Shown here: positions 3,738 through 55,300 of the stretch, in pieces
Layout of the letters: each line of letters begins with the position of its first letter
Position numbering within the stretch: position 1 is the first letter of the stretch
Virus record (IMG/VR): IMGVR_UViG_3300035686_000004
Span: 1-64,000 of that record
DNA: 64,000 bases
Origin: a virus
Reading direction: 5' to 3' (one strand)
Made by a program: the position numbers and the translations under genes
Notes under the pieces: generated by a model
The model's database searches: none
Told to the model about the DNA's origin: nothing
The model's input: only the letters and a program-made list of their open reading frames with translations

Positions 3738-4742
3738 CTAAATTATTGGAGCACCTCGATCCTCGATGGCTTGTGCTAGCCGATCTCCTTCAACCTTGTG
3801 CAGATCTTCTGCTGTGCCAGGGGAATCATCCTCAAGGGAATCAATCCAGCCATGCACGGCATCAATAAATGGCATCCTTTGCGAATCATGCAAAGTAAGT
3901 AACGCCCCGCCTAGATCATTTAGGGCAACATCGCGATCACTGAACTTCCTAGAGGCGATCGCCCAATGCACGGCAATGTCTTTTGCCAATGTCTGATAAT
4001 CTTCGATAGTAAGATTACCTGGATGGACATGATTGGTCTTAGCTAGAACGAAATCTGAACTAATGCCAAGGCGATCGCGTAACTTCCTGATATCCGCATT
4101 TTGCTTGGGATGTAGATACTGGGGTGCTGGCTTGGCTTCCTGTTGAGGCATTGGCGCGACTTTCTCTTGAGTTTTCTTTGATGTATCTGCCAATGCAGGT
4201 AGGAGTAATTCGGATGAAGCAGATGACTGCACTTTTTGCTTACTTGCACTGCCAGATCGCCCTGATTGTCGCGCTGTTAAATCTTTTTGAATTTCACCTA
4301 CAATTTTTTGCCGACGATGCTTTTTCGACTCCTCATCATCCAAGATACTCAACTCTAGAAGCGCTAACGTGTTGTACCTACGTCCATACTTTGAAGCAAT
4401 CCCAAACGACTTGGGATCATCCCCCGGCAGGGGTAAAGGATAGTAAGATTCAATGCTTTCACCCGATATATGCAGTAAACGAGTAACCAGGTATAACCGA
4501 CCCGAACCACCGACCAAGGAAGGATCACCCACATAGATATTTTGGCTGACCATTGTCAACCCGTTGCTAGATAAAGCAGGTGTTATAGCAGGGATGATGT
4601 CATCCAACTCAGCCCAGTCGTAACGAATCCGACCACCAGCTTTGGTCGAGTAGTCCGCACTGCTGTCAGCGATAATTGGCTCAAACGATAGCTTAGCGAT
4701 CGCAAGTGCAGCGGTTAAGTTTGGAGTAGAAGGAAATTGCAT
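3738..4742 (-). CDS. ERF-family single-strand annealing recombinase
   Basis: 334 aa. The N-terminal LTAALAIAKLSFEPIIADSSADYSTKAGGRIRYDWAELDDIIPAITPALSSNGL follows the ERF pattern (AL..aq.e...v.Kd....yrYa.Ld.v...v.p.L...Gl). Consensus promoter directly upstream (4890..4918). Confidence 0.7.
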   Translation of the reverse strand: MQFPSTPNLTAALAIAKLSFEPIIADSSADYSTKAGGRIRYDWAELDDIIPAITPALSSNGLTMVSQNIYVGDPSLVGGSGRLYLVTRLLHISGESIESYYPLPLPGDDPKSFGIASKYGRRYNTLALLELSILDDEESKKHRRQKIVGEIQKDLTARQSGRSGSASKQKVQSSASSELLLPALADTSKKTQEKVAPMPQQEAKPAPQYLHPKQNADIRKLRDRLGISSDFVLAKTNHVHPGNLTIEDYQTLAKDIAVHWAIASRKFSDRDVALNDLGGALLTLHDSQRMPFIDAVHGWIDSLEDDSPGTAEDLHKVEGDRLAQAIEDRGAPII

Positions 4743-4889
4743 GATATGCCTCTATGATTTGTCTTACAGAAGAGTAGTAGAGCACCCTAGCGACACACAG
4801 ATTGAAACTACTGAGCTTTTGCCTGTCTTTTTGCTTCTATTCGATCGGTTGTACGTAACGGGGCTTTACCTCCCCTGCTACCTTTACTT

Positions 4890-4918
4890 AATCTAACACC
4901 CTACCTAGACTCTGTCAA
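4890..4918 (-). promoter_or_regulatory. early promoter: TTGACA - 17 nt ending GGGTGT - TAGATT
   Basis: -35 at 4913..4918 and -10 at 4890..4895 (minus strand). TGT before the -10 gives a TGn extended -10. Confidence 0.7.
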
Positions 4919-4923
4919 TGAAA

Positions 4924-4937
4924 GTCTAATATTAGAC
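4924..4937. repeat. PAL14 perfect
   Basis: 5 nt upstream of the -35 of the ERF promoter, and 10 nt after the stop of 4948..5313. Confidence 0.95.
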
Positions 4938-4947
4938 TACCAATCGT

Positions 4948-5313
4948 TTATGATTCCTCATCGCACGGTGACAGCACCGCAAAAAACTCTTCTTTTGTGT
5001 CCGCCCACGTAAGCGCAGCATACACGAGTTTTTTCAACGGAATTTCAAAATTAGGGGCTTCAAGGTAAAAGCCCTTAAACTTTTGAATTTCATATACGAC
5101 ATCAACAAGTGAGTCAATGTTTGCTTCAAGGGAGGCGATCGCTCTTTCCAGTTGTAGTTGCCGATCAAGGCACTCAGAACGGGTTTGTTCAATCATTGCA
5201 ATATTTTCACTAATTTCTTTACGTTTACTCTCTAGGCTTCGGATATGAGTATCTAGCTCATCAATCTGCTCCAAAGAATTCTTGCGTAATTCACTGAATA
5301 CATGGTGTAGCAT
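4948..5313 (-). CDS. hypothetical coiled-coil protein
   Basis: 121-aa ORF with heptad-like charged sequence. Same strand as its neighbours, with a palindrome immediately after its stop. Confidence 0.55.
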   Translation of the reverse strand: MLHHVFSELRKNSLEQIDELDTHIRSLESKRKEISENIAMIEQTRSECLDRQLQLERAIASLEANIDSLVDVVYEIQKFKGFYLEAPNFEIPLKKLVYAALTWADTKEEFFAVLSPCDEES

Positions 5314-5372
5314 TGAAAGATGTCCTTATTGTGCAGAACCGTGAGGCGGCGCTATCCTGCCTCACCTTTACT

Positions 5373-5400
5373 AAACTAACACCTTATACAGCAAAATGCA
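5373..5400 (-). promoter_or_regulatory. early-type promoter-like motif (AGGTGT-TAGTTT)
   Basis: The minus strand reads AAGGTGTTAGTTTAGTAAAGG, nearly identical to the ERF promoter downstream region GGGTGTTAGATTAAGTAAAGG. The -35 is weak. Confidence 0.35.
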
Positions 5401-5632
5401 CACCAAACAAGGCAATAATTTAATTGCTCCAATCATCATTATTGTGTTGGGGTTAACAGCATGGTTACTAGGAAACGCAATAGGCGATCGCCAGGGGGGA
5501 ACCAACATAGGTCTAACACTGATCGGAATTGGCGGAGGGCTTGCCAAGCAAGAAAATTATGCCAAGACGGAGCACATAACATCCGAGAATATTGAAACGA
5601 TTAATCTAGAGAATAATCAATCTAAACCTTAA
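5396..5632 (+). CDS. small membrane protein (2 predicted TM segments)
   Basis: 78 aa. LIAPIIIIVLGLTAWLLGNAI and IGLTLIGIGGGLA are hydrophobic stretches. No clear RBS. Confidence 0.4.
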   Translation: MHTKQGNNLIAPIIIIVLGLTAWLLGNAIGDRQGGTNIGLTLIGIGGGLAKQENYAKTEHITSENIETINLENNQSKP

Positions 5633-6291: not shown

Positions 6292-6322
6292 CGCGAATCT
6301 CTGTTAGTGGCCTACAAGATTC

Positions 6323-6351
6323 AATCTAACACCCTTTTTAGTTAAGGTCAA
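6323..6351 (-). promoter_or_regulatory. early promoter: TTGACC - 17 nt ending GGGTGT - TAGATT
   Basis: -35 at 6346..6351 and -10 at 6323..6328 (minus strand), upstream of 6031..6291. Confidence 0.7.
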
Positions 6352-8469: not shown

Positions 8470-8483
8470 GTCCAATATTAGAC
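8470..8483. repeat. PAL14 variant GTCCAATATTAGAC
   Basis: Lies 48 nt after the stop of 7046..8422. Confidence 0.8.
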
Positions 8484-8601
8484 TGGATGCGATCGCGCCT
8501 TAGTGTAAGCGCATTAAATAGTCGATTGAATAAGTATTTCTACTAATAGCAGGTATAGCAGAAACCTCCTATGATAGAGATAGCTAAACGCAGGAGGCTT
8601 A

Positions 8602-8736
8602 ATGAAAAAAGAATATCGTTTCATGATCAATCCAGAACTGCACAAAAAGTTTAAGGTGCTTTGTGCAGAGAAGGAAGTGTCGATGAGTGAGGAGTTAGAG
8701 GCGATCATTATGCAAGCGATCGCCAGAATTTCCTAG
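8602..8736 (+). CDS. ribbon-helix-helix (CopG/Arc-like) small DNA-binding protein
   Basis: Below the ORF-track size cutoff. ATG at 8602 follows AGGAGG (8592..8597). Translation: MKKEYRFMINPELHKKFKVLCAEKEVSMSEELEAIIMQAIARIS, i.e. a beta-strand (YRFMI) plus two helices, typical of RHH. Confidence 0.6.
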   Translation: MKKEYRFMINPELHKKFKVLCAEKEVSMSEELEAIIMQAIARIS

Positions 8737-8759
8737 ATTCTAGTGCAAGACAATAGCTT

Positions 8760-8860
8760 GTTTCAATCCCTAATAGGGATTATTGGGAGCGATCGCCTTC
8801 CATCAGGGTATCCTTAGCTCCTACCAGAATGTTTCAATCCCTGATAGGGATTATTGAGAG
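8760..8860. CRISPR. two CRISPR-repeat-like 30-nt direct repeats with one 41-nt spacer-like insert (mini-array or solitary repeat units)
   Basis: R1 8760..8789 GTTTCAATCCCTAATAGGGATTATTGGGAG. R2 8831..8860 GTTTCAATCCCTGATAGGGATTATTGAGAG. They are 28/30 identical with a 71-nt period. The reverse complement ends in CCCTATTAGGGATTGAAAC, resembling (from memory) cyanobacterial repeats ending in ATTGAAAC. No cas genes in the window. Confidence 0.4.
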
Positions 8861-9059
8861 TGGATCACCCATCAATATAATACAGCCTATTTATGAACAC
8901 GGCAAGTTGAGTATCTTTTCGCAGCTGGTAATGCTGAATTTGTGGGGTACGAACTAATGGTGCGTGATGTCTGATTAAGTCAAGTGCAAAAGCATTAGGT
9001 TGTTAACGAGGGTTATCTGCGATAACTACAAAGCGCGATCGCCCACAGTATATCCTTAG

Positions 9060-9085
9060 CCCCTGCTAGCCAGGGGATTTTTGTT
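9060..9085 (+). terminator. intrinsic terminator CCCCTG-ctagc-CAGGGG + ATTTTTGTT
   Basis: Stem-loop plus T-run. Member of the repeated intergenic cassette. Confidence 0.65.
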
Positions 9086-9094
9086 GGAGTTACT

Positions 9095-9108
9095 GTCTAA
9101 TATTAGAC
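9095..9108. repeat. PAL14 perfect
   Basis: Between terminator 9060..9085 and promoter 9118..9146. Confidence 0.95.
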
Positions 9109-9117
9109 TAAGGCTGT

Positions 9118-9146
9118 TTGTCAATCCTAGTATAGGGTGTTAGATT
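9118..9146 (+). promoter_or_regulatory. early promoter: TTGTCA - 17 nt ending GGGTGT - TAGATT
   Basis: -35 at 9118..9123 and -10 at 9141..9146, upstream of 9174..9485. Confidence 0.7.
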
Positions 9147-9173
9147 AGATGAAGTGGAGATTCAACAAACGCC

Positions 9174-9485
9174 ATGACTTATTACGTCAACCAAGACAAA
9201 GCCGAATACAGCCAGCAAGAATTGATTGACTTGCTCATGGGTATTGCAAAACCGATGTGGACATGCCGCACTTATGAACCGGAATACGTGGAGGATGGAA
9301 TTCTAGCGGAAACGCTAGTAGATGACGAAGAATGGAATGCTTACCTTGAAGACTATGGCGTGCCTTATGAGTCGCTAGAATCGCCTTATATTCGGCAAGA
9401 ATTTAGGAAAGAAGTGCTAGCGATCGCTGAGGCTGCTTTTGCTTGCCGCTTGAATGCCTGGGAAAATATGACCCGTTCCATCTAG
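9174..9485 (+). CDS. hypothetical acidic protein
   Basis: 103-aa ORF bracketed by promoter 9118..9146 and terminator 9544..9571. Confidence 0.6.
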   Translation: MTYYVNQDKAEYSQQELIDLLMGIAKPMWTCRTYEPEYVEDGILAETLVDDEEWNAYLEDYGVPYESLESPYIRQEFRKEVLAIAEAAFACRLNAWENMTRSI

Positions 9486-9543
9486 AGGCCTTACACTGAA
9501 TCTGAATTGAAGCGAAGAACACGCGATCGCTGTATGTCCTCTC

Positions 9544-9571
9544 AATCCCCTGCTAGTCAGGGGATTTTATT
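9544..9571 (+). terminator. intrinsic terminator AATCCCCTG-ctagt-CAGGGGATT + TTAT
   Basis: A 9-bp stem after 9174..9485. Confidence 0.65.
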
Positions 9572-9583
9572 GGCGCGATCGCT

Positions 9584-9597
9584 GTCCAATATTGGAC
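9584..9597. repeat. PAL14 symmetric variant GTCCAATATTGGAC
   Basis: Both half-sites changed in a compensating way. Between terminator 9544..9571 and promoter 9608..9636. Confidence 0.8.
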
Positions 9598-9607
9598 TGA
9601 ACGTCCT

Positions 9608-9636
9608 TTGCAATTTCAGCGCAAAGGTGTTAGACT
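9608..9636 (+). promoter_or_regulatory. early promoter: TTGCAA - 17 nt ending AGGTGT - TAGACT
   Basis: -35 at 9608..9613 and -10 at 9631..9636, upstream of 9670..10578. Confidence 0.7.
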
Positions 9637-9669
9637 GCATTGATAAATGTGTAGTAGTAAGTAGAAAAC

Positions 9670-10578
9670 ATGAATAATCAACCCTGGCTAATTACGAATA
9701 ATTCTTGTGATTTTGATCCAAAGGAAATAATTGACGGGGCGATCGCGGCTCACAATATAGATGAAATTTGGGCAATGTTTAGCGGTGGTCATGATTCATT
9801 GGTATCTACGCATATTGCAAGTTCTCATGAAAAGTTCAATGGAGTTTTACATATTGACACAGGCATTGGCATTCCACAGACACAGCAATATGTCATAGAT
9901 GTGTGCGATCGCTTTGGCTGGGAATGCAATATTTATAGGGCAATAGAGAACACAAAAGCAGACGGAACGCCCGATCCAATATTTTATCGGGATTTAGTCT
10001 TGCAATGGGGATTTCCCGGTGCAAATCTTCATCAATTCATGTATAGCTGTCTTAAAGAAAGGCAAATAGCTCGCTTTGTTCGCGATCGCAAAAAGAAAGG
10101 AATAAAACGCATTGGCTTGGTAAGTGGCGTCCGAACTGCCGAAAGCGATCGCCGTAATCGCAAACTCATGAGTGGAAGTCAAATGCATCACCGCGTAGGA
10201 ATGAAGGTTTGGATTGCGCCAATAATCTTGTTTACCGAGGAGGACTGTCAGGCATATATGAAAAGTCATGCACTGCCTCGCAATCCAGTTAAAGACAATC
10301 TTTGTATGAGTGGGGAGTGTTTATGCGGTGCATTTGCTCAACGTAACGAATTAACCCAATTAGAAGTTTTTTATCCTGAAGTTGCCGAACGCATTAGAAA
10401 ACTAGAAAAAGAAGTTTATCCTTCATTTCCTTGGGGTTGGGAAGATCAGCCGCCAAAATGGTGGAAAAATAAGCAAAAATCGGAGCGATTAGAAGCTAAC
10501 GGCCAGTTAAACTTGTTTACCTCACCTCTTTGTTACTCTTGTGCAATAAATCACCATACCAAGCTACACGAAGATTGA
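9670..10578 (+). CDS. PAPS reductase / PP-loop ATP pyrophosphatase family protein
   Basis: 302 aa. MFSGGHDS matches the SGGxDS PP-loop. There is a Cys cluster, CMSGECLCGAF. Own promoter (9608..9636) and terminator (10611..10634). Confidence 0.75.
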   Translation: MNNQPWLITNNSCDFDPKEIIDGAIAAHNIDEIWAMFSGGHDSLVSTHIASSHEKFNGVLHIDTGIGIPQTQQYVIDVCDRFGWECNIYRAIENTKADGTPDPIFYRDLVLQWGFPGANLHQFMYSCLKERQIARFVRDRKKKGIKRIGLVSGVRTAESDRRNRKLMSGSQMHHRVGMKVWIAPIILFTEEDCQAYMKSHALPRNPVKDNLCMSGECLCGAFAQRNELTQLEVFYPEVAERIRKLEKEVYPSFPWGWEDQPPKWWKNKQKSERLEANGQLNLFTSPLCYSCAINHHTKLHED

Positions 10579-10610
10579 TGTAATCCGCGATCACCCACAG
10601 TATATCCTTA

Positions 10611-10634
10611 ACTCCTGCGGATCAGGGGTTTTTT
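10611..10634 (+). terminator. intrinsic terminator ACTCCTG-cggat-CAGGGGT + TTTTT
   Basis: Stem (one G-U pair) plus a T6 run, after 9670..10578. Confidence 0.7.
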
Positions 10635-10649
10635 ATTGGGGTAATTATT

Positions 10650-10663
10650 GTCTAATATTAGAC
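10650..10663. repeat. PAL14 perfect
   Basis: Lies 16 nt after terminator 10611..10634. Confidence 0.95.
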
Positions 10664-10824
10664 TCGACGCGATCGTAGACAAAATGCGATCACCTGACAG
10701 GTAGAGCGATCGCATGAAACAGGGTGGTAATTGATTTTTATAAATACCGTCTCAATCCGGGTAATTTTCCTGGATTTGAGACGGTAACCTGTGCATCTAC
10801 TTCAACAATATCATAAAGAATAAA

Positions 10825-12902: not shown

Positions 12903-12933
12903 TTGCAAATTACGACAGAACGGGTGTTAGAAT
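12903..12933 (+). promoter_or_regulatory. early-type promoter-like motif (GGGTGT-TAGAAT)
   Basis: -10 TAGAAT at 12928..12933. TTGCAA at 12903..12908 gives a long 19-nt spacer. Confidence 0.45.
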
Positions 12934-12966
12934 AGTTAAAAGCTACCATACAGGCAATTCACACTA

Positions 12967-43191: not shown

Positions 43192-44562
43192 TTAGGGTTT
43201 TAGTTTTAAAGTAAAAACCGTATTAAATTCCATCTGTTGTATAAATCCGGGGCTAGCTACAGAAACACTGCCGCCATGAGCGATCGCGCAAGCCTTGACA
43301 ACTGATAAACCCAGTCCAACACCCTCAACCGCTCCAACATTATCAGCCCGTTGAAACGCCTCAAAAACAGTATTGCCTATATTTTCGGGAATTCCTATAC
43401 CTTTGTCACCTACCGAAACAGACCAAGCTTGAAGATCAACTAAAATATAAATCATTCCTCCTTTTGGGGAGTATTTAACTGCATTACTAATTAAGTTGCG
43501 AATAGCGCGATCACAAAAATCAGGATCAATTCTAATAATCTGCGGTTCTCCCAAAGCCCTAACAATCAGTTCATGTATTTCAGTAGATTGGCTATATTCA
43601 GATGCAATAGTGTTAACTAGCTCAGGTAAGTCTACTTCTTGGATGTCTAGTCGAATCTGATTGGTCTCTGACTGACAAACCAGGATTAAGTCATCAGCTA
43701 GATCTTTAATCCTGTTGGTGCCTTTTGGAATTTGTGCAACCCATGTTTTTAATCGATCAGGTCTAGTATTGCCATAGTGTTGGATCAACTCTGATGCTGT
43801 TAATATAGGCTGAAGACATAGGCGCAAGTCATGAGCGATCGCGCCTATTACTCGTGCTCGTTCCGCTCTTGCATTTTGCATTACCTTGATCTCGCAAGCA
43901 TCCGCATGATGCTTGATGAGTAACTGCTTATTTCTCCATGCGATCAATAGGATTGTGGAGGCGATCGCGCCAGATAACGTAGCTGATAATGCTAGACGCC
44001 TTGCCAAGAGCGAGTTTAAATAATGAATAGATTTGTATTGTTTTTGACGAATTAACACACGAATTTGGTTCGCCTCTTGTTCTACCTTGGCAATTAGCTG
44101 CCTGTCTTGTAACAGGAGTGAAGCAATGTTTTTGTCTTGCGTCAAAAATCTAATTTGTAGAGTAGCCTGAAATACCTTAATTTTTTCTTGTTTGATTTGT
44201 TGCAATTCATAAACATCCAACCTATCAACGTAGCGATTGTTAATTAATTCTTTAGTATAAACATCTACACTATTCAGGTTCTTATTAAAGGTGGTAATGT
44301 AGTAACTACGATCACTTAGATTCCCTAGCGCGCTTTTAATTAGATATTCTTTAGCGGTAATATCCGACTGAGTAAATGCAGTGACAATGCGTTCTAGATG
44401 TATCGTATCAACGTGCAATTTCTCAATAGTTTGTAATGTATTGTGAATATTTACTTGAGTAATTAAAAGCAATGGACTGGCTACGGCGGCAACAACAGCG
44501 CAAGCGATCGCTCCCATCAATAGCTTTTCTTTGAAGTAATCCCTTAGACGGAGAGTTTTCAC
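43192..44562 (-). CDS. sensor histidine kinase
   Basis: 456 aa with two TM segments flanking a roughly 150-aa helical sensor region. H-box IGAIAHDLRLCLQPI, N-box NLISNAVKYSPKGG, G-boxes GDKGIGIP and GVGLGLSVVK. Confidence 0.85.
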   Translation of the reverse strand: MKTLRLRDYFKEKLLMGAIACAVVAAVASPLLLITQVNIHNTLQTIEKLHVDTIHLERIVTAFTQSDITAKEYLIKSALGNLSDRSYYITTFNKNLNSVDVYTKELINNRYVDRLDVYELQQIKQEKIKVFQATLQIRFLTQDKNIASLLLQDRQLIAKVEQEANQIRVLIRQKQYKSIHYLNSLLARRLALSATLSGAIASTILLIAWRNKQLLIKHHADACEIKVMQNARAERARVIGAIAHDLRLCLQPILTASELIQHYGNTRPDRLKTWVAQIPKGTNRIKDLADDLILVCQSETNQIRLDIQEVDLPELVNTIASEYSQSTEIHELIVRALGEPQIIRIDPDFCDRAIRNLISNAVKYSPKGGMIYILVDLQAWSVSVGDKGIGIPENIGNTVFEAFQRADNVGAVEGVGLGLSVVKACAIAHGGSVSVASPGFIQQMEFNTVFTLKLKP

Positions 44563-46355: not shown

Positions 46356-49300
46356 CTATAGCCCATGACGTCTTCTTTCGTTGGGAGAATTCCTCATCCA
46401 GTTTGAGGTTATCTTAGCACCACCTCGCGCCCCTTCTTGCGCGGCGTATTGAATGCCCTGTTCAAATTGTTCACGGGTGACGTACTCGCGATCGCCTATC
46501 TTTTCGTACTGGATGCTGATACTGCGACTACTTTCTACAGGTTCACCACTGGAGTATTCACGCTGTTGGTAGGACGGCATAGCCCCGCCTGAATTTAGAG
46601 AATCAAGGAATGCCGTCCCCATGTTTGTTACGCCGTCACGAGACACAACAAACTCTCCGGGTCGTAGCATAGCAGGAACACTATCCTTGCCTTTATCAGT
46701 TCCAGGAACAACGCCACCTTCAGAAAAACCAAGGATACCTGTCAGTAATCCTAATGGATTGCCACCGCCGCCAATAACAGAGCCTACAATACTGCCTAGT
46801 AATCCTCCACCAGTGTCTTGACCCGTGTTTTTACCCTTGAATATGCTTTCAACTCCAATGTCAATCAACCGACCAATAATTTGGTCTTTCATCTGATTGA
46901 ATGCATCTTTGAGGGATTCAAAAACACCTTTACCCTCAATCAGAAAACCCTTAAAGAAGTTCTTCGTTGCATCTCTGCCAGCTAACTCTACTTCGCGAGA
47001 TAAGTCAGCAAATTGTTGGCGAATTTGATCCAGTTTGAGTTGGTTAATCTGGATCAAATAATCACGCATCCGCTCAAATTCATCATTTGGAATCTGCCCC
47101 TTCAATTGGTTCAATTGCTCCATTTGATTCTTGAACGTCATATTTTGCTGAGCGATCGCCACATTGCGCTTAATGAATGTAGCTGAGAAGTCCGCGCCAT
47201 TCCCTGCTAATACATCCGCTCTCAAGTTAAGCATCTCTGCATTGCGGTTGAAGCGTGCTTGCTGTTGGGCGATCGCGGCTTGCTGTCGTTGCAAAGATAG
47301 TATTTGTTCTAGACTTTGGCGTTGCCGTTCATAATCCTCGGCTGAAAGATTCGTCAATGCACGCGCTTTTTCTAGTTCCCTGATTGCGGAGTCATATTGC
47401 ATACTTGCATTGAACTCCTGCGCTTGACGGGATAGAGAATCAACTTCGATACCCACTGAACTTAACAGCCCTGTCCTAGCCTGTAGGGTTGCTAGGTCGG
47501 CTTGCTGGTTCTGTTGCTTCCGTCGTAATTCAAAGTCAAGCCTATCTTGAGTAAACCGGGTCTGTGTTTGCTGTAATTCAATCCTGGCATTCTCTAGTCG
47601 TTGATCCGCCGCTTGATTGATAGTCGCAAGGATTGCATTCAAATCTTCTTGAGAGCGGTTTTGATTGGTCAACTGAAAGCGCTGTTGCTCTAATATTGCC
47701 TGTTGACGCTCCTGCTCGACTTGTAGCACTGTTTGCTGGTAGCGCAACAACGCAGGATCACCTTGACTTAAATCAAATGGGCGGAACTGCTGGAATAATT
47801 CAGCCGCCTGCTGTTGTGCTTGAGTTAGCTGTCCTGATGCCTGATTGCGGCGCTGCAAAAATGCAAAGTCAGCCTCTCTAAACTGAAGTTGCCGCTCCTC
47901 TTGACCAAACGCCCGCGCGGCTTCTGTATTTGCAGTCAAAGCTTTCTCTTGCTGGTTGAGAAGGGCGATCGCATCATTGTATTCTTGGGGCTTAATCCGT
48001 TCTAGCCTCAACTCTTCTTGCAATTGCCGACGTTTTTGATCGAGAGGAAGTAGGCGTTGCATTAGCTCAATCTCTGCCTGTAATGCGATCGGGTCACCCT
48101 GGGAAAAGTCGCGGGGGTTGCGCTGTTGTGCAAGTTGGGCACGTCGTAGTTGCTCTTGCTTGAGAGCGATCGCCTCTTGGGTAATCATGTCACGAGCCGC
48201 CAACCGTCGCAGCTTTTCCTCTCTCGCAAACCGCTCTTTCTCAAATGCTTGGCGGCGCTTTTCTTGGTCATCAATCTGACCAATGATGGTATTCACTTCT
48301 TTAAGTGTCTTGGAACCAACCGCGATCGCTCTACGGGTTGTCTCAATATCCTTGGCGACATCTTGACCGGGCTGTGCTTGATAAGTTGGGGAAGTTAATT
48401 CTTTCTCGGTAGCACGCGCCTGTTCCACCCCTGCTGTAGTCTGACGCTGAAATTCTAGTAGGCGTCTCCTTAAGTCTGAATAAGTATCACTGGTTGCTGT
48501 TAAATTTTGTTGGAATTCTCGCAAGGGGGTAGGGTCACCAATTACACTCCCCAAGTTTCTAAATTCTCGTTGAATACCAAGGGACTGCTCTACAAGCTGA
48601 TTAAGGGATTGGCGCGTTTGTTCTGTCCGGTTGCGCTGCTCTTGCGCCCCCCTTGTTTGCAAATCTTGAAGCGCTTGTTGCTCTTGCTGGATGGCAAGCT
48701 GATCTTGGCTTTCACGGTTACGGATAACTTGACTTTGACCACTGACAACACGCTGCCTTAAGCCCATATCAACAACAGGTACTGGTTTGGTAGATACCAC
48801 TGATACTGGGACTGGAGTTGGCTTAGCCACAGGTGCTTTAGGGGGTTGGACAATTTGTGTGGCTTGCCTTGCTTTTGCTGCCTCTTCCGCCACTACTTCA
48901 GGATTGACCATGCTTATACCTAGAACGGCACTACGCTTTACCCCTGTCCCTCCTTGGCGATACAGATTAAGTCGATTTTGGAAGTAGGGAATGGCTGACC
49001 GTCTACGCCCCTGCGGTGTACCTTGTCCATAAGGATTTCCCTCAAAGCTTGCCCAAATCTGCCCTAAGCGCCGCCACATACCATTTATATCTCCTTTCTC
49101 CGCCCTACCAAGGATTCCAGCTTCGTCCAATAGCGCGAGTGCCGCAATGTCTTGGCTAGTAGGACTGAAGTCTGGCACTCCAGTAATGTCTCTTACTCCA
49201 GGCCCTGGTCTTTGCTTTCTCCGTCCATACCACGTGTAATCCATGAATTGGTATTTCCCCGCCGCACTTGACGGAATCCAGCCGGGTCGCCTTACTACTC

Positions 49301-52300
49301 TATCGGGATGTCTCGATAAATTCGAGAGTTTACTGCCTCCGTAAAGCATATCGTATGTTGCACCCTCAGCCCGCCCAATAGTATCTAGTAATGCTCGAAT
49401 CTCCGGATCATTCAGCAACTGAGCATAGCGCTGTCCTTTTGCTGTCAGTCCCCTAGGAATAGCTCGATTAGTGGGTGCAGTGCCGTTACTTCTGAGTGAG
49501 TTTGCGATCGCAGCCCCAATTGCATTAGCACCCCCGCTGATAGTCCCCTGATCTTCCGTTCGACTGCTAGCACGCTTTGTCGTAGTTGATACCGCTGTTG
49601 GTCGCATTTGCCCTTTGAGTTGTTGCTCATAGGGCGCTAACCCTCCAATTACCCTAAGCCTAGTTCCCTCTTCGCGAATTAATCCTAGTTTTTCGAGATA
49701 TTTAACGGGATCGGTTGTCCCAGGGAATCCAAGACCCCCAACCCCATTAGTATGCTTAGTCCGAATTTCGTAATGTATAACTCCTGTATATGATTCTCCT
49801 CTTCCTACTGCTTGACCGGGTTGTACGACATCACCTTTTTTAACCAATAAGCGTGACGCTTCCGCTATGCGTTCAACAACATTTAACGCTTTGTTGTAAA
49901 TATCTACATAATGCCCATAACCTTTCCAGCTTCCGTCATACCCTATGTTCGTGACAACACCACCCAAGAAACTTTGTGCATCCTGTCTTCCTGTGATATC
50001 AAAATCTTGCCCAGCGTGACGCCTACGCCCACCACTTCTAGGCGCACCGTAGTCCTGACCCGGTATCAAGTTTGTACGGTAATTAATAGTGACGCGCCCA
50101 TCGCCTCTGACTATATTTCCACTACCCTTTTTTCCGCCTGAGTCTAATATTAGACTGGTACTACTTGTCGCTGATCGTTGCTTTGGCTTTTGTGGCGTTG
50201 CTGCACTCCCCCGATCAGCGCTTAGTAACCCCTCTTGCACATATTGCTCAAAGTTGGCAGAGTCACCTTTGATTGACGCGATCGCTTCTTTACTTTTTTG
50301 CTTAATCGCATCAATTGATTTACCAAATGAACCGACTAGCGTTTCACCTAAACTTGTAACTGAACTGCCAAGTTTATTAAATTCATTTCCTAGACTAGCT
50401 ACTTGCTTTTTGGCTGCGTCTACTAAATTGGGATACTTGGATAGTTTCAAGCCAATTTCAGTCACAATACCAAGGATGGGATTAAATGCCTTGAGCAAGT
50501 TAACCCCTACAATAGTTGCAAACTCTTTGGTACTGGCTTTGATTTTCCCCGTTAAATCATTGATGCCAAATTGCTTTTCAATGATTTGGATATGTGCCGC
50601 GATCGCCTGATTAAGGGCTTCATTCATTCGGGCTAATTCTGCACGAATTGATTGAATGCCCGGTATTGATTGAAGTTGCTTTTCGATAATTTGCAAATAT
50701 GACGCAATTGTTTGACCTAAATCCTGATTCATTCGTGATAACTCTGCACGAATAGATTGAATCCCAGGGATAGATTCAAACTGCTTTTTTATTATTTCAA
50801 TCTGTGCGGCAATGCTTTCTCTTAGTACTTCGTTGATACGCTTAAACTCAGTATTTATGTTCCTGATAGCTGGAATCGATTGGTCAACATAGGTTACAAA
50901 AGATTGCCAACTAGCCTGTAGTGAGGCGATCGCGTCATTCCACGCAGTACGAGGATTAGTGAAAATATTGAGTAGGAAATTTTTGCTCTGTTCAACAACA
51001 TTCAAGAATGCTTGCCATCCAGTCTTTAACGCATCTTCAAATTGCTTACTCGTGCCAATCAAGCCAGCAAATAACGCAATTAAACCGGGAATTCCACCAG
51101 CAATTGATGCACTAAATGAGCCAAAACTTAATTGCCCGTTTTCAAAAGGCTTGGAAATAGCCGCAGATAAACCAGGAAAGCGCTGCTTAACGAACTCTAC
51201 AAACTCATTCCATTTTGCTTTTAGAAAGTCAATGGCTTGATTCCAGGGATTTGGATCGGGGTGCGGCAACTGTGTCTGTTGCAGAGATGTATTTACATTA
51301 GCGATCGCGCCGTTAAGATTTTTGGTTGTCACTCCTGCGCTTTCCAGCCCCGCCTTGAGTTGCTTGACCGTTGCATCGGCATTCACGGCATCAATATCAA
51401 GTCTAATGGGAATCCTTGAGATAGGCGTTGTAGATATTGAATCAGGGACTAAATTACTAGGCAATCCATCTGGCAATTGACGGGTTAGTTCAGTGCCTTG
51501 GCGCAACAAATCAGATGCTTGAATCTGGTTTTGATAGAGTTGTTGTCGCTTTTGTATTTCCGCCTGTTGTGCCGACTGGATGCTGTCCAGTCCTGATATG
51601 AGTGAATCAACAAATCCTGAGAAGAAATTAGACTGAAATCCTTGCAACTTAGATATCAAGCGATTCTTTTCAGCCGCGATCGCTAACTGTGATTCACTTG
51701 CCTCAATAGTCAATTGCAGTTCTTGAGTCTGCCTGCTAATCCCCCGTAAATACTCATCTACGGACTTGCCCAGTTCGTATAACTGCTGTGCTGCATCTGC
51801 CTGTGATTGACTTAGTTGTACCTCTAATTGACCTAGCTGTCCTTCTATTTCCCTCATCTTGGTCAACCGTTCATACAGCAGCTTTTCTTCAGCCCCCGTC
51901 GCTAAACCCGATAGTCTATTTAATTCTTCTGTCCCTATCGTTTCAGGGTTAATGCCTCGCTGAAACATTAGTTGCACATTGTCGGGCGTATTTACATACT
52001 GACTGAGTTTACCAAGGGCTTGAGTTGCGTTGTTAACCTGTGCTTCCAGTGATCGCTGTTGCAATAATTGCTGACCATACTGTGCTTGACCAGGAGTTAA
52101 TCCATTGCGCTGTGCTATTGATAACCCTGTTTGATAACGCGCTGTATTGCCTGTGATCGCTGTATTAGCATCAGCATAAGCCGTTACAGTTTTTGTTAAT
52201 TGGTCACGAATTAACTTAACTAAACTAATTTGCCCTGATGTAAAGTTTTCGAGTTCTTTTTGTGCAGCTTCCAGCGCGGGAATTGATTGTCTAATATTAG

Positions 52301-55300
52301 ACTTTAAGACGTCTACCTGTTTCCGAGAAATCTGATTTTTTGCCCATAATTCATCTATTGATTCAATCTCTGCATTGGCGGCCTCTAGCAAAGAATCCAC
52401 CAGTTCCTTTTGATTACGGACTCTAACGTCAATTTGCTCTTTTTCTTTGCTGTAAATGTCTCGTTGATAGCTTGGCAAAAACGGATCAGCGGTTAACGCA
52501 CTAAGTTGTCGCGATCGCGCTGCATCGTCAGGTTTGACCTGAGAATTATTGAGGGTAACATTAACTCGATTATTGAATTCTTGAATATCTTTTAAGTTAG
52601 AGCGCGATCGAATTATTGATTGTAGGTTATTGTAATTACCCAAAATTGATGCGATCGGATTAAATGTATCAAGTGCTTTTTGCTGGGCATTGCGGTTCAG
52701 GAATTTATCTAAATCATTGAAGGTCTTGGGTATACCTTTGCCAACCCCGTTGGCGGCATCCTCTAAACGCTTGAATTGCTTGATGTTTTTCTCGATTGCT
52801 GAATCTAAATTTTGAGAGCCTTGGAATGATTGCCAAGTATCTGATACTACCTTGAGGGCTACTGCCAAGGCAGCTGTTTGTAGGGAGAACTTAGCGATCG
52901 CGGCAGCTGCAACATTAAATCCACCAGCAAGCGCAGGCAATGCAACTTGGGCAATCTTAAGAATCAATCCAAGGACAACTGGAAGCTGCTGTAACGCTAA
53001 TGCGCCAAGAATTAAAGCGATTTTGTCAGCGTTGGCAATGACTGCTTCTAGTGCGACATTCAATCCTTTCAGCCCAGTATTAACTAGAGGCATTACCGCA
53101 CTCCCTAGCATCCGCTCTAACTGAATTCTTGTATTGCTTAACCTATTCTCTAGTGCCTGCGTTGAGTTTGTAGCTTCATCTACTCCAGACGCAAACTCAA
53201 CGCGCAGTTGACGCGCAAACTTCAAGACAGACTCAGCACCAGAATACTGACCCGTTACCAGGTTTTTCCTAAACGTTTCTGGTGATTCACCATATGCTCT
53301 AGCAAAAATATTCGCCGCGCCCGGAAATGCCTCACCGATTTGTTGATTGACTTCCTCACTAGATAATACAGGTTTACCAGCTGCCTGAACTACACCATAA
53401 ACAAATCGACGTCGCCTCTCTGGCGTTAACTGCCTGACCAGTGCCGCCTCATTAAGTGCCGTAAAAATTTCACGGGTATTGCCTTGTAGCTTTGTCCCTT
53501 GCAATGCTGAGGATAAGTCATTAAAGCTTTCTGTCGCATCTTGTAATGGTGCGTTGAGTCGTTCTACTTCGCTTCTGATATATGCAATGTTTTTTGCGCC
53601 CTCACTTTCAGATCCGGCACTATACCTAATTGAGCGCTCTAAGCTATCGAAAGCTTTTGCTGTTTGGTAAGCTTGATTTGCAATGTTGCCTAGAACTGGA
53701 ATGAGTTGCAATGCAAGTAATGCAACGCCTACTCCTCGTATTCCACTAGACAGCGATCGCAGCAAGGGATTAGCTTTTATTAATTCATTGATCGCTTCTC
53801 TAACTTGCATTACCTTATCAATTGCCCCTTGACTAGGCTTAGTAATCAATTCTCTTGCCCAGTCAAGCCCCTGTTGTCCCTTCTGAATGCCTTGGTTAAA
53901 TCCCTCTACGACAAACTCGCCAATGCGTTGAAACACTCGCGATGGACTTTGTATATCTAGTGTGTCTTTCGCCTGGTTAATTGCTGATTTAGCTAATTCT
54001 TCAGCAGCGGCTTCAACTTGCTGAATTGATTGACTCATTCCCTCGCTTAAGCCTTGTCCAATATTAGACCCAATTCCTTGAGATTGGATGAGGGATTCAG
54101 CAGTGGATGAGGCAACCGTTATCCTAATCCTGGCTGACTTAGCGATCGCTTTCAGCTCTTGCGAAGCATTGCCGCCTAGCGACTTCATCAAGTCATCAAT
54201 TGCTTTCTTTGCTTCCTTAGCCCCTGTCAACACTTCATTGGCTAATTTCTGAGACTCGATTGGATCAAGTGTTGAAAGTTTTCTGGCTGACTTGATTTTT
54301 TCAGTAAATTGTAATCCTAAACTCTTGACACTAGCGCCAGGATCTATTGCTTGAGTTAACGGTTTATTAATTTGCTTGATAGATTCTTCTGTACGTTTTT
54401 GAATTTTAACTACTTGTGATTTTAGGTTGGCTAATTGATTGCCTAGCTCAGAACTGAGACGTTCATTGACTGGGAGAGAGGCGATTGCCTGTTCTATTTC
54501 TTGAGATAATCCAGGTAGTAAGTCTTTGACTACATCGGCGTAGGCAGCTGAAATGTTAGGTACTCCCCTGGATAAATCACTAGCCGTTAAAGAGCTTTGT
54601 GCTAACGCCTCAGTCCGTTGCTTTATTTGATCAATCAGGGATGCATCAGGGCGCGATATTTCTTGTATTAACGGTTGACCAATTGCCCCAATAACTTGAT
54701 TGATTAATATATCTGATTTCTTAATTACTTCCTTGACGTTGCGCTGCAAAGCTTCATCTGTCGCGTTTTGGGCTGTTGATTTTAAGGAAGTTTGATTAAC
54801 AGGTAAAATAGCCGTTAATTCAGTTTGTGGGGACTGAATATTAGCAGGTAAATTAACAGGAGCAAAAGTCTTTTCAGTTGTCTTAATTAGCTTGTCTAAC
54901 TGCTCTAATGGCTCTCCGTTAATGAATGAATTAATAGATTGCTTGAGCGTCTCTAGATAATCTAAATAGCTATCGACGTCTTGTTGAGTGACATTAGTTA
55001 ACTGTGCAGCGTCAACCTTGATTTGCTTGATTAACTCATCAATATCTCTACGGGAGTCTATTAATTCACGAGTCGATGCTGACTGATTTTGCAATAAAGA
55101 AATTGCTCCCCTGGGAACTTCAGGGTATCTGTACAAATTGGTTGTGTTTTGCTTTCTAAGTGCCTCAGCCTCAGCGATCGCTCGTGCCTCTTGCGCTTGC
55201 TTTTGCGCTCTCGCCGCACGCTCTCGATCTATGTTTGCGTTGAGAGTAGGCGTCAGTTGCTGTTGCAATGCCTGAACAGGCTCATAATATTGAGCGCCTA

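Follow-up and report, generated by a model that had tools for sequence, protein, structure and literature searches.

A cas-less CRISPR mini-array with cyanobacterial type I-D-associated repeats in a swapped module of a cyanophage genome

Why would a cyanophage without cas genes carry two CRISPR-like repeats around a single spacer, and could so small a locus act as a guide against other phages, as a decoy for the defences of its host, or not at all? The locus lies in a 64,000-nt stretch of DNA, the window analysed here (positions 1 to 64,000 of IMG/VR virus record IMGVR_UViG_3300035686_000004). The window is phage-like: its virion structural proteins are ~41% identical to those of Cylindrospermopsis phages, and a helicase and methyltransferases are also encoded. 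An initial annotation of the sequence had described two direct repeats (8760-8789 and 8831-8860, 28/30 identical, with a 71-nt period), each containing a 7-bp AATCCCT/AGGGATT stem. Both are present as described, and each repeat is predicted to fold as this hairpin with one extra pair, which is also the fold of the host repeat. The reading of the reverse complement as ...AATCCCTATTAGGGATTGAAAC was likewise correct, and the statement that the window holds no cas genes agrees with our search, in which none of the ORFs of 150 aa or more matched a Cas family.

The repeat units are thus real, but the length of 30 nt given for them was too short, as the unit measures 37 nt, as it does in host arrays. 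Because a 37-nt repeat unit matches the host arrays, the spacer is 34 nt long and not the 41 nt first proposed; we rejected the 41-nt insert because its first 7 nt, the bases aligned with HIP1, are repeat sequence. HIP1 itself occurs 144 times in the window. The array therefore consists of a repeat at 8760-8796, a spacer at 8797-8830 and a second repeat at 8831-8868, all read on the minus strand. Copy 1 (37 nt) is leader-distal in the crRNA sense and reads GCGATCGCTCCCAATAATCCCTATTAGGGATTGAAAC. Copy 2 (38 nt) comes first in the crRNA sense and retains its hairpin and ATTGAAAC handle, with degeneration of its 5' 8-9 nt; in the alignment its outer 8 nt read GTGGATCAC versus GCGATCGC, and there is a 1-nt insertion. 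The spacer reads ATTCTGGTAGGAGCTAAGGATACCCTGATGGAAG in the crRNA sense. The 64 kb contain just two exact copies of the 26-nt repeat core, where shuffled sequences lead one to expect 0, and a search with the 3' repeat core allowing up to 3 mismatches recovered the same two copies alone.

Judged by their sequence, the repeat units are true homologues of the cyanobacterial type I-D-associated CRISPR repeat. Copy 1 shares 27 identical nt, and copy 2 shares 26, with the repeats of long arrays in Nostoc, Nodularia, Anabaena, Calothrix, Lyngbya and other filamentous cyanobacteria. The exact 26-nt core was found in 18 cyanobacterial genome stretches, 16 of them arrays of 6-52 repeats and the other 2 consisting of one or two units. 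Three host arrays directly follow, in the same direction, genes for Cas1d (scoring above its curated cutoff), Cas4 and Cas6; next to one of the three there are also Cas10d, Csc2 and Csc1. The repeat of an array in an Oscillatoriaceae MAG agrees with copy 1 at 34/37 positions and likewise ends in GCGATCGC. The kinship with cyanobacterial CRISPR repeats that had been proposed in the initial annotation is therefore borne out, both by exact matches in host arrays beside type I-D cas genes and by the Rfam family CRISPR-DR5 (RF01318). Against this model, on the minus strand, copy 2 scored 37.9 bits and copy 1 36.5 bits (E=3e-4 and 6e-4), narrowly short of the 40-bit gathering threshold and with only model positions 7/8-37 of 37 aligned; a search of the whole window at the gathering threshold returned no CRISPR-DR5 match. 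This narrow miss is due to the 5' 6-7 nt, which differ at the end that is variable in the family. When seven host and three phage repeats were compared, the invariant columns (the 3' 23 nt) proved intact in both copies, and the variable 5' part alone differed. The DR5/type I-D hallmark is present as AATCCCT, a 3-nt loop, AGGGATT and GAAAC, with the hairpin followed by the 8-nt handle. All 30 functionally relevant positions are intact in both repeats, and the two copies differ from each other only where host arrays also vary. The period of 71 nt and the spacer of 34 nt are the commonest values in the host arrays, 34 nt being the length of 77/324 host spacers.

The mini-array is real but of a known kind, since there is a published precedent in Nostoc phage N-1 and since we found further mini-arrays in phage YongM and in the MaMV phages of Microcystis; a few IMG/VR contigs also carry mini-arrays or DR5 units. 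The array of N-1 belongs to the same repeat family, lacks cas genes and is transcribed during infection (Chenard et al. 2016, PMC4916379), and its repeat is cut by Cas6 enzymes of Anabaena, of which the type I-D one is preferred (10.1101/2020.04.14.041012). Both N-1 and the window have cas-less, phage-borne arrays with 37-nt DR5/type I-D-associated repeats that are identical over the 3' 23 nt, similar spacer lengths and no known spacer targets. N-1, however, has five repeats, four spacers and a leader of ~100 nt with a TTGACA promoter, which it has in common with YongM, whereas the window has two repeats and no homologous leader, and its phage backbone is unrelated to that of N-1. The array of YongM (MT426122, in which it is unannotated) has the same 37+34+37 architecture, 71-nt period and repeat family as that of the window, but YongM is an N-1-type phage with an N-1-type leader, its two repeats are identical over 37 nt, and its spacer is unrelated. 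A further parallel is provided by the Sulfolobus viruses SPV1 and SPV2, whose case is one of interviral conflict (Medvedeva et al. 2019, PMC6858448), whose mini-arrays are also cas-less, hold one or two spacers and have repeats matching host arrays. In these viruses the spacers relate to loci near the array and the carrier's own copy is mismatched; in the window, too, the spacer partly resembles mismatched loci close by, but this self-similarity is statistically weak. The SPV1 and SPV2 arrays have leaders and known 100% targets in a co-occurring relative, whereas we found neither for the window. According to the discussion in PMC6858448, the phage mini-arrays of Faure et al. 2019 are without leaders, and in the window, likewise, none is recognisable.

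The array belongs to a recently swapped accessory module and is no core terminator, because a ~90% identical phage contig is without the whole module. The homology breaks at a flanking palindrome, and the content of the relative in this region is entirely different. On the left, the palindrome GTCCAATATTAGAC occupies 8470..8483, with the homology of the relative stopping ~6 nt beyond it; on the right, the boundary palindrome of the module is GTCTAATATTAGAC at 9095..9108. The same module encodes, on the plus strand at 8602..8736, a 44-aa ribbon-helix-helix (RHH, Arc-like) ORF that is preceded by a GGAGG ribosome-binding site and ends 23 nt upstream of the array, in the opposite sense. Its assignment comes from matches to Pfam RHH_10 (E=3.5e-4, short of the threshold set for the family) and to a PHROG of Arc-like repressors (E=5.6e-4), and its AlphaFold2 model has an extended N-terminus followed by two helices (mean pLDDT 81). 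The ORF is missing from the ~90% relative, found none but itself among 5.8 billion proteins, and gave nothing in tblastn against the host CRISPR loci. The locus and 24 kb of the window had no nucleotide match in 50,697 phage genomes, and a search of IMG/VR through the upstream 458-aa protein found no relatives. The PAPS-reductase-like protein led to four distant loci, none of which has the repeats, the palindrome or the cassette, and the large protein database yielded one 2.3-kb contig that stops before the locus and one distant contig.

By the handle rule, the crRNA sense is the minus strand, as the initial annotation had also suggested, and the array is antisense to both flanking genes. The arrays of N-1, YongM and MaMV, in contrast, run with at least one neighbouring gene. 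A consensus scan found a single, weak minus-strand promoter candidate, TTGCCG-17-TATTAT at 8877..8905 (9/12 matches), from which crRNA-sense transcription would start at the 5' edge of copy 2. The best promoter-like site in the region is TTGAGA-16-TATAAT on the plus strand at 8854..8881 (11/12), which points away from the array and whose -35 box is the degenerate outer end of copy 2; it would yield a non-coding transcript of ~200 nt ending at the 9060-9085 terminator. The predicted structure of this downstream RNA was in no way unusual, and little could be learned from folding the whole locus and the non-coding stretch downstream of it (z = -2.5, -1.8 and +1.0). No leader was recognised by homology to the common N-1/YongM leader or to the flanks of the host arrays.

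The spacer was said to be clearly related to an intergenic cassette of the phage itself, with copies at 9044 and 10596. These copies exist. The first, on the plus strand at 9034..9085, comprises HIP1, CACAGTATATCCTTAGCCCC and the intrinsic terminator CCCCTGCTAGCCAGGGG with its T run, and no other sequence in the window matches the spacer better; the second (10586..10642, plus strand) is 82% identical to 9034-9090 and is the second-best match. The spacer matches the 9034-9085 cassette at 19/24 positions ungapped, or 22/28 with one gap, the spacer-like stretches lying at 9042-9069 and 10598-10621, but the similarity is weak. Its best local score against the window, 14.5, was equalled by 31/300 shuffled spacers and by 68/324 real host spacers (p ~0.1-0.2), so a clear relationship does not stand. 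Counted within +-2 kb of the array, matches as good were obtained with 11/2000 shuffles and 5/324 host spacers (p ~0.005-0.015). We therefore regard the resemblance as weak overall and as suggestive only if proximity is counted. The two sites that match the spacer best in the whole window are both cassette copies close to the array, significantly so within this distance, which counts in favour of a guide; the pattern fits viral mini-arrays that hit nearby loci of close relatives and whose carriers have a mutated copy of their own (PMC6858448).

Canonical self-targeting or self-regulation of the cassette was rejected. The spacer has five mismatches to it among the PAM-proximal 8 nt, and the PAM position reads CCC instead of GTN, the PAM of type I-D systems. 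A protospacer elsewhere was sought in several collections. None was found in IMG/VR, either with a degenerate cassette/spacer pattern or with a seed pattern leaving every 6th base free. The seed pattern gave 31 matches in JGI metagenomes, all of them attributable to chance (best 27/34), and the 34-mer had one match among 50,697 isolated phages, in an Enterobacter phage and also due to chance. A comparison with ~46 kb of the closest relative yielded no protospacer either. Against the 18 host loci the spacer had no match of at least 13 nt and none longer than chance. In the reverse direction, the 324 spacers of the 18 matching host arrays gave nothing beyond chance against the window, and the spacers of the N-1, YongM, MaMV and IMG/VR arrays had no match in it. 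The database comparison proposed with the initial annotation thus recovered the repeat in host arrays but no spacer target in related phages or in the collections. That these searches gave no protospacer counts against a guide, as do the antisense position of the array, its weak candidate promoter, the want of a recognisable leader and the fact that the cassette similarity is not significant against the whole window.

What, then, is the locus for? We tentatively favour, at somewhat less than even confidence, the explanation that it is a cas-less mini-CRISPR array which a cyanophage acquired from a filamentous cyanobacterium, out of a type I-D array, and uses as a guide against competitors. The capture was probably by recombination and not by Cas1-Cas2 adaptation, because no leader is recognisable. 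The array would be transcribed from the minus strand, and host Cas6 would cleave at the base of both intact hairpins, cutting free one crRNA of ~71 nt with the 8-nt AUUGAAAC handle, the 34-nt spacer and a 29-nt 3' repeat part. The type I-D Cascade of the host would take up this crRNA and then destroy DNA with a matching protospacer. The likeliest target would be a competing phage of the same lineage, and the similar cassettes of the carrier itself would escape through their seed mismatches and the missing PAM.

The strongest competing explanation, which we consider possible though on the whole unlikely, is that the locus encodes an RNA anti-CRISPR, either with its repeats as Racr-like decoys that occupy host Cas6/Cas7 or as a Cracr-like regulator. 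In the latter version the spacer would pair partly with the promoter of a host cas or defence gene and silence it, and the locus would be no weapon against other phages. Phage repeat mimics of both sorts depend, as the array of the window would, on binding by host Cas6/Cascade. The elements that Cas6 would need, the hairpins and handles, are perfectly kept in the window, while the parts that matter to adaptation alone, the outer repeat end and the leader, are degenerate or not recognisable. The promoter-like site that immediately precedes copy 2, the first repeat of the crRNA sense, recalls those of viral solitary repeat units (PMC10651486), and solitary DR5 units do occur in other viral contigs. 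The array adjoins a gene for an RHH DNA-binding protein, regulators being frequent in anti-defence loci, and the failure to find an interference target in the collections searched would also be expected. Examples of crRNA-like regulators in phages are on record for types V-A, I-B, I-C, I-E and I-F (10.1101/2024.10.29.618823, 10.1101/2023.03.03.530964), but we found no published example for type I-D, and the orphan RHH protein has no known connection with anti-CRISPR loci. Published Racrs, moreover, are single repeats (PMC10651486), and in published regulatory mini-arrays one repeat is as a rule strongly divergent and the spacers are truncated, whereas both repeats of this locus are good and its spacer is full-length, at the commonest length. 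The spacers of Cracrs have seed matches to host promoters and are often shortened (10.1101/2024.10.29.618823; 10.1101/2023.03.03.530964). A Cracr would be expected to match a host cas or toxin promoter over at least 9 PAM-proximal nt; the comparison made here covered the 18 host loci outside the promoter regions of type I-D operons, and there the spacer had no match of 13 nt or more.

Rather unlikely, in our view, is that the locus is an inert relic, the scar of a recombination with a host CRISPR array that is neutral in a hypervariable region and silent in the crRNA sense. Several of the features already described would be expected of such a scar: the array opposes the local genes, no leader is recognisable, copy 2 is degenerate at its outer end, which has come to overlap a strong promoter-like site on the plus strand, and the ~90% relative has wholly different content in the region. 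Microhomology for recombination would also be available at the HIP1 end of the repeat and in the similar, neighbouring cassette. Nevertheless, the intactness of the 30 functional positions in both repeats is odd for a decaying scar, although it is compatible with a very recent one. In addition, mini-arrays recur independently in YongM, in the MaMV phages and in IMG/VR contigs, and such recurrence suggests selection.

We think it very unlikely that the array is transcribed on the plus strand only, as the 3' UTR of the RHH mRNA, to give an antisense RNA that pairs with the repeats of host pre-crRNA and either blocks their maturation or triggers their degradation. The geometry would permit it, as the plus-strand RHH ORF stops just 23 nt short of the array, the next predicted terminator is not met until 9060-9085, and RNA from the plus strand would have perfect complementarity to host repeats over 26-27 nt. 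The idea is nonetheless pure inference, for which we found no published precedent; our scan detects no promoter for the RHH gene, and an intact ATTGAAAC handle and a spacer of canonical length would be superfluous. Very unlikely, too, is the form of this idea in which the array is mainly or only read through from the RHH gene and the anti-repeat pairs either with all repeats of the host's type I-D pre-crRNA or with the hairpin and handle of mature crRNAs, disabling crRNA maturation. As a variant, RHH-controlled convergent transcription from the overlapping plus- and minus-strand promoter-like sites at 8854-8905 would toggle between production of the guide and of the anti-repeat. If true, the anti-repeat would be an anti-CRISPR mechanism of which we found no published description.

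That the hairpins are ordinary transcription terminators, degenerate copies of the phage's own family, as the initial annotation had cautioned, is effectively refuted: the stems are superficially alike (AATCCCT/AGGGATT versus AATCCCCTG/CAGGGGATT), as is the downstream ATTGG and HIP1 context, and copy 1 lies just past a stop codon, but the 26-27 nt of identity to host CRISPR repeats includes the GTTTC flank, the loop and ATTATTGG, all missing from the terminators, the hairpins are flanked 3' by ATTATTGG on the plus strand and by GAAACA on the minus strand with no T run on either, the terminator scan flags neither unit on either strand, the family in the window amounts to exact members at 9060 and 9547 and a degenerate third at 10612 (the last from the repeat listing alone), and the close relative is without the units.

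The locus opens no new question. We believe that it is convenient for separating the roles of guide, decoy and relic, given its opposite orientation, its Arc-like neighbour and its absence from a ~90% relative; Cas6 assays already exist for the Anabaena 7120 system. It also adds an independent case in which a cyanophage has captured a type I-D repeat-spacer unit, in a phage lineage without relationship to N-1, whose structural proteins are siphovirus-like and close to those of Cylindrospermopsis phages. Taken with YongM, MaMV and the IMG/VR contigs, it suggests that DR5 elements of one or two units are not a curiosity of N-1 but recur in freshwater cyanophages.

Within the 64-kb window, exact copies of the 26-nt core GTTTCAATCCCTRATAGGGATTATTG lie at only two plus-strand positions, 8760 and 8831, against none in shuffled sequence, and no copy of the repeat 3' core beyond these two was seen in the window with three mismatches allowed. 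The positions of the two repeat units in the initial annotation were confirmed in the sequence. Comparison with host arrays showed that the true repeat unit is 37 nt long and placed repeat copy 1 at 8760-8796, the spacer at 8797-8830 and repeat copy 2 at 8831-8868, all on the minus strand as the crRNA sense. The 41-nt insert described earlier therefore comprises a true 34-nt spacer and 7 nt that belong to repeat copy 1. The outer 8 nt are GCGATCGC in copy 1, which is one copy of the HIP1 octamer, versus a decayed GTGGATCAC in copy 2. Fold prediction gives each unit a hairpin of 7-8 bp capped by a 3-nt loop, as in a host repeat of the Rfam CRISPR-DR5 family.

The exact core was found in 18 stretches when one genome per prokaryotic species was scanned, all of them from filamentous cyanobacteria (Nostoc, Nodularia, Anabaena, Sphaerospermopsis, Calothrix, Lyngbya PCC 8106, Kastovskya and Oscillatoriales MAGs). 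Arrays, with 6-52 repeats of 37 nt and commonest periods of 71-73 nt, account for 16 of them. Three arrays lie downstream of cas genes: Cas10d, Csc2, Csc1, Cas6, Cas4 and Cas1d in Nostoc sp. T09; Cas6, Cas4 and Cas1d in Nostoc sp. 106C; and Cas4 and Cas1d in Calothrix NIES-2100. Cas1d exceeded the curated type I-D cutoff at all three loci. The earlier assignment to a cyanobacterial CRISPR repeat family is correct. These three arrays are co-directional with their cas genes when their repeats are read as ...AATCCCTATCAGGGATTGAAAC, which makes the minus strand the crRNA sense in the window. On that strand the two copies scored 37.9 and 36.5 bits against DR5. They narrowly miss the 40-bit threshold, as the outermost 6-7 nt at the 5' end, which vary within the family, do not align. 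In the alignment of host and phage repeats, all 21 invariant and two nearly invariant columns are intact in both copies; the closest full-length host repeat, from an Oscillatoriaceae MAG, matches copy 1 at 34/37 positions and likewise ends in GCGATCGC, and 34 nt is the commonest length among 324 host spacers. The units are CRISPR repeats, and it is nearly certain that the element is a captured type I-D repeat-spacer-repeat unit. Orphan units of the 26-nt-core repeat were also seen on host chromosomes, as a two-repeat mini-array in Nodularia sp. UHCC 0506 (stretch L012, 6781-6880) and a solitary repeat in Lyngbya sp. PCC 8106 (stretch L011, 1543-1569), consistent with what has been described in Anabaena 7120, where arrays are fragmented.

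The window is phage-like: the virion structural proteins it encodes share about 41% identity with Cylindrospermopsis phage proteins, and its other products include a helicase, methyltransferases, an ERF recombinase and an M15 peptidase. No nucleotide relatives were found among 50,697 phage genomes. The earlier statement that cas genes are absent held for window ORFs of at least 150 aa, among which no Cas family was found. The window belongs to a contig of 67,444 bp in metagenome assembly GCA_034690465.1, and a Logan contig assembled separately from SRR11830169 is identical over the locus, with reads possibly common to both assemblies. An assembly chimera is unlikely, since phage sequence flanks the 109-nt array at both ends. 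The cyanobacterial HIP1 octamer is present in 144 copies in 64 kb, a sign that the phage has long co-evolved with a host rich in HIP1. For a phage of about 67 kb, two minus-strand ORFs stand out as unusual cargo, one of 3743 aa with a single Peptidase_M23 domain (46356-57587) and one of 456 aa with a histidine-kinase-type ATPase domain (43192-44562).

The mini-array is not a core phage element. A 14-nt palindrome, GTCYAATATTRGAC, has 36 copies with at most one mismatch in the window against 0.03 expected (for example at 1476, 3640, 4924, 8470, 9095, 9584, 10650, 22531, 37098, 38896, 57609 and 57637); many are intergenic, and those near the mini-array follow a terminator hairpin. Searching IMG/VR with it returned one relative, IMGVR_UViG_3300036939_000039 (67.6 kb, ~87-93% identical). 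The palindrome is common to both genomes and module swaps break beside it. It resembles a phage-wide motif of the operator, promoter or recombination-boundary kind. Homology with this relative ends about 6 nt past the palindrome at 8470-8483 and returns weakly at 8942-9042 (68% identity); between these breaks the relative has an unrelated 165-aa ORF and zero repeat units. Over 8489-10668 as a whole, the window's RHH gene (a 44-aa ribbon-helix-helix ORF), mini-array, ORF103 and PAPS-reductase-like gene give way in the relative to about 1 kb (4398-5430 of stretch L045) that holds other genes, with unrelated 165-aa and 71-aa ORFs. The RHH gene and mini-array are therefore accessory: together they make up a swapped module, and the region around it is hypervariable.

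The resemblance of the spacer to the phage's own intergenic cassette had been overstated. The spacer matches the cassette at 9042-9069 in 22/28 positions with one gap, or in 19/24 ungapped, and the second copy at 10598 less closely. Against the whole window this score of 14.5 is unremarkable, being reached by 31/300 shuffled spacers and 68/324 real host spacers; within 2 kb either side of the array, a limit picked after the data were seen, it was reached by 11/2000 and 5/324, respectively. Scores of at least 12 occur in the window only at the two cassette copies, both no more than 1.8 kb away. Given the post hoc limit, we regard the relation as suggestive rather than established. In crRNA sense the spacer has five mismatches to the cassette in the PAM-proximal 8 nt, and the cassette has CCC at the PAM position in place of the GTN of type I-D. 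On both counts the carrier phage would not be a target. By exact pattern matching, which diverged targets would escape, no protospacer was found in IMG/VR, and the 31 matches in JGI metagenomes were all chance (best 27/34); none was found among isolated phages or in two-thirds of the relative.

Both flanking genes, the RHH ORF (8602-8736) and ORF103 (9174-9485), are on the plus strand, as is the sole strong terminator (9060-9085). In N-1, YongM and the MaMV phages, other carriers of such arrays, one or both adjacent genes run in the crRNA sense, whereas here neither does, and for this reason we only infer minus-strand transcription. The only promoter-like site in crRNA sense is TTGCCG-17-TATTAT (8905-8877, minus, 9/12), with a start predicted at the edge of copy 2; neither the leader that N-1 shares with YongM nor the flanks of host arrays showed homology to the locus. 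On the plus strand a stronger promoter-like site, TTGAGA-16-TATAAT (8854-8881, 11/12), takes its -35 box from the decayed end of copy 2 and faces away from the array. The stretch that follows it to 9085, with about 200 nt, ORFs of at most eight codons and then a terminator, may be a small RNA or 3' UTR element; its predicted structure is not unusual, and the 8942-9042 part is kept in the relative behind another gene. A motif of the -10 region, GGTGTTAGATTAGA, has five matches in the window against 0.55 expected (minus strand, 4887-4900, 5370-5383 and 6320-6333; plus strand, 9136-9149 and 12923-12936). At 9118-9146 a TTGTCA box precedes it, and the relative has a similar TTGACA...TAGATT arrangement; the motif is probably the signature of a class of early promoters. 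The RHH gene has a GGAGG ribosome-binding site, and its product gives weak Arc-like/RHH profile matches and a predicted model with an extended N-terminus followed by two helices; among 5.8 billion proteins it had no homologue but itself.

Three published concepts bear on function: viral mini-arrays in interviral conflict (PMC6858448), RNA anti-CRISPRs (PMC10651486) and viral crRNA-like regulators (10.1101/2023.03.03.530964, 10.1101/2024.10.29.618823). The first fits best because both repeats are good and the spacer is full-length, and we tentatively suggest, at somewhat short of an even chance, that the mini-array is a competitor-targeting guide. A decoy or regulator, as in the other two concepts, appears rather doubtful, and an inert recent scar is unlikely. 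That the locus is a source of plus-strand anti-repeat RNA is very improbable, and that the hairpin-forming repeat units are themselves terminators is scarcely credible.

Searching phage genomes with the mini-array returned N-1, whose repeat is cut by Anabaena Cas6 enzymes with the type I-D one preferred (10.1101/2020.04.14.041012), Nostoc phage YongM and four Microcystis MaMV phages, each of which has two repeats. YongM shares the architecture of the array in the window, 37+34+37 nt with a period of 71; its mini-array is unannotated (MT426122; stretch L169, 1432-1539), with two 37-nt repeats, a 34-nt spacer and an N-1-type leader, and a 'hypothetical protein' CDS, QLF85138.1, overlaps the second repeat and leader. 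MaMV-CH01 (PP681321; stretch L170, 1427-1590) has a DR5-like two-repeat mini-array with no annotated feature under the match, and corresponding matches are present in CH02, DL01 and DL02. The sequence directly past the second repeat of the CH01 array is 90% complementary to the 39-nt 'spacer', so that this repeat would form part of a long hairpin's loop. Across the 2.9 million contigs of IMG/VR, the invariant DR5 3' core was found in only eight stretches, from solitary units to five repeats: five single units, two of them the same sequence; a two-unit element (L178) with a TTGACA...TAATAT promoter directly upstream; a four-unit array (L180); and an N-1-like five-repeat array (L177). The element in the window is a further case of a known phenomenon, phage-borne mini-arrays without cas genes that belong to the cyanobacterial type I-D repeat family.
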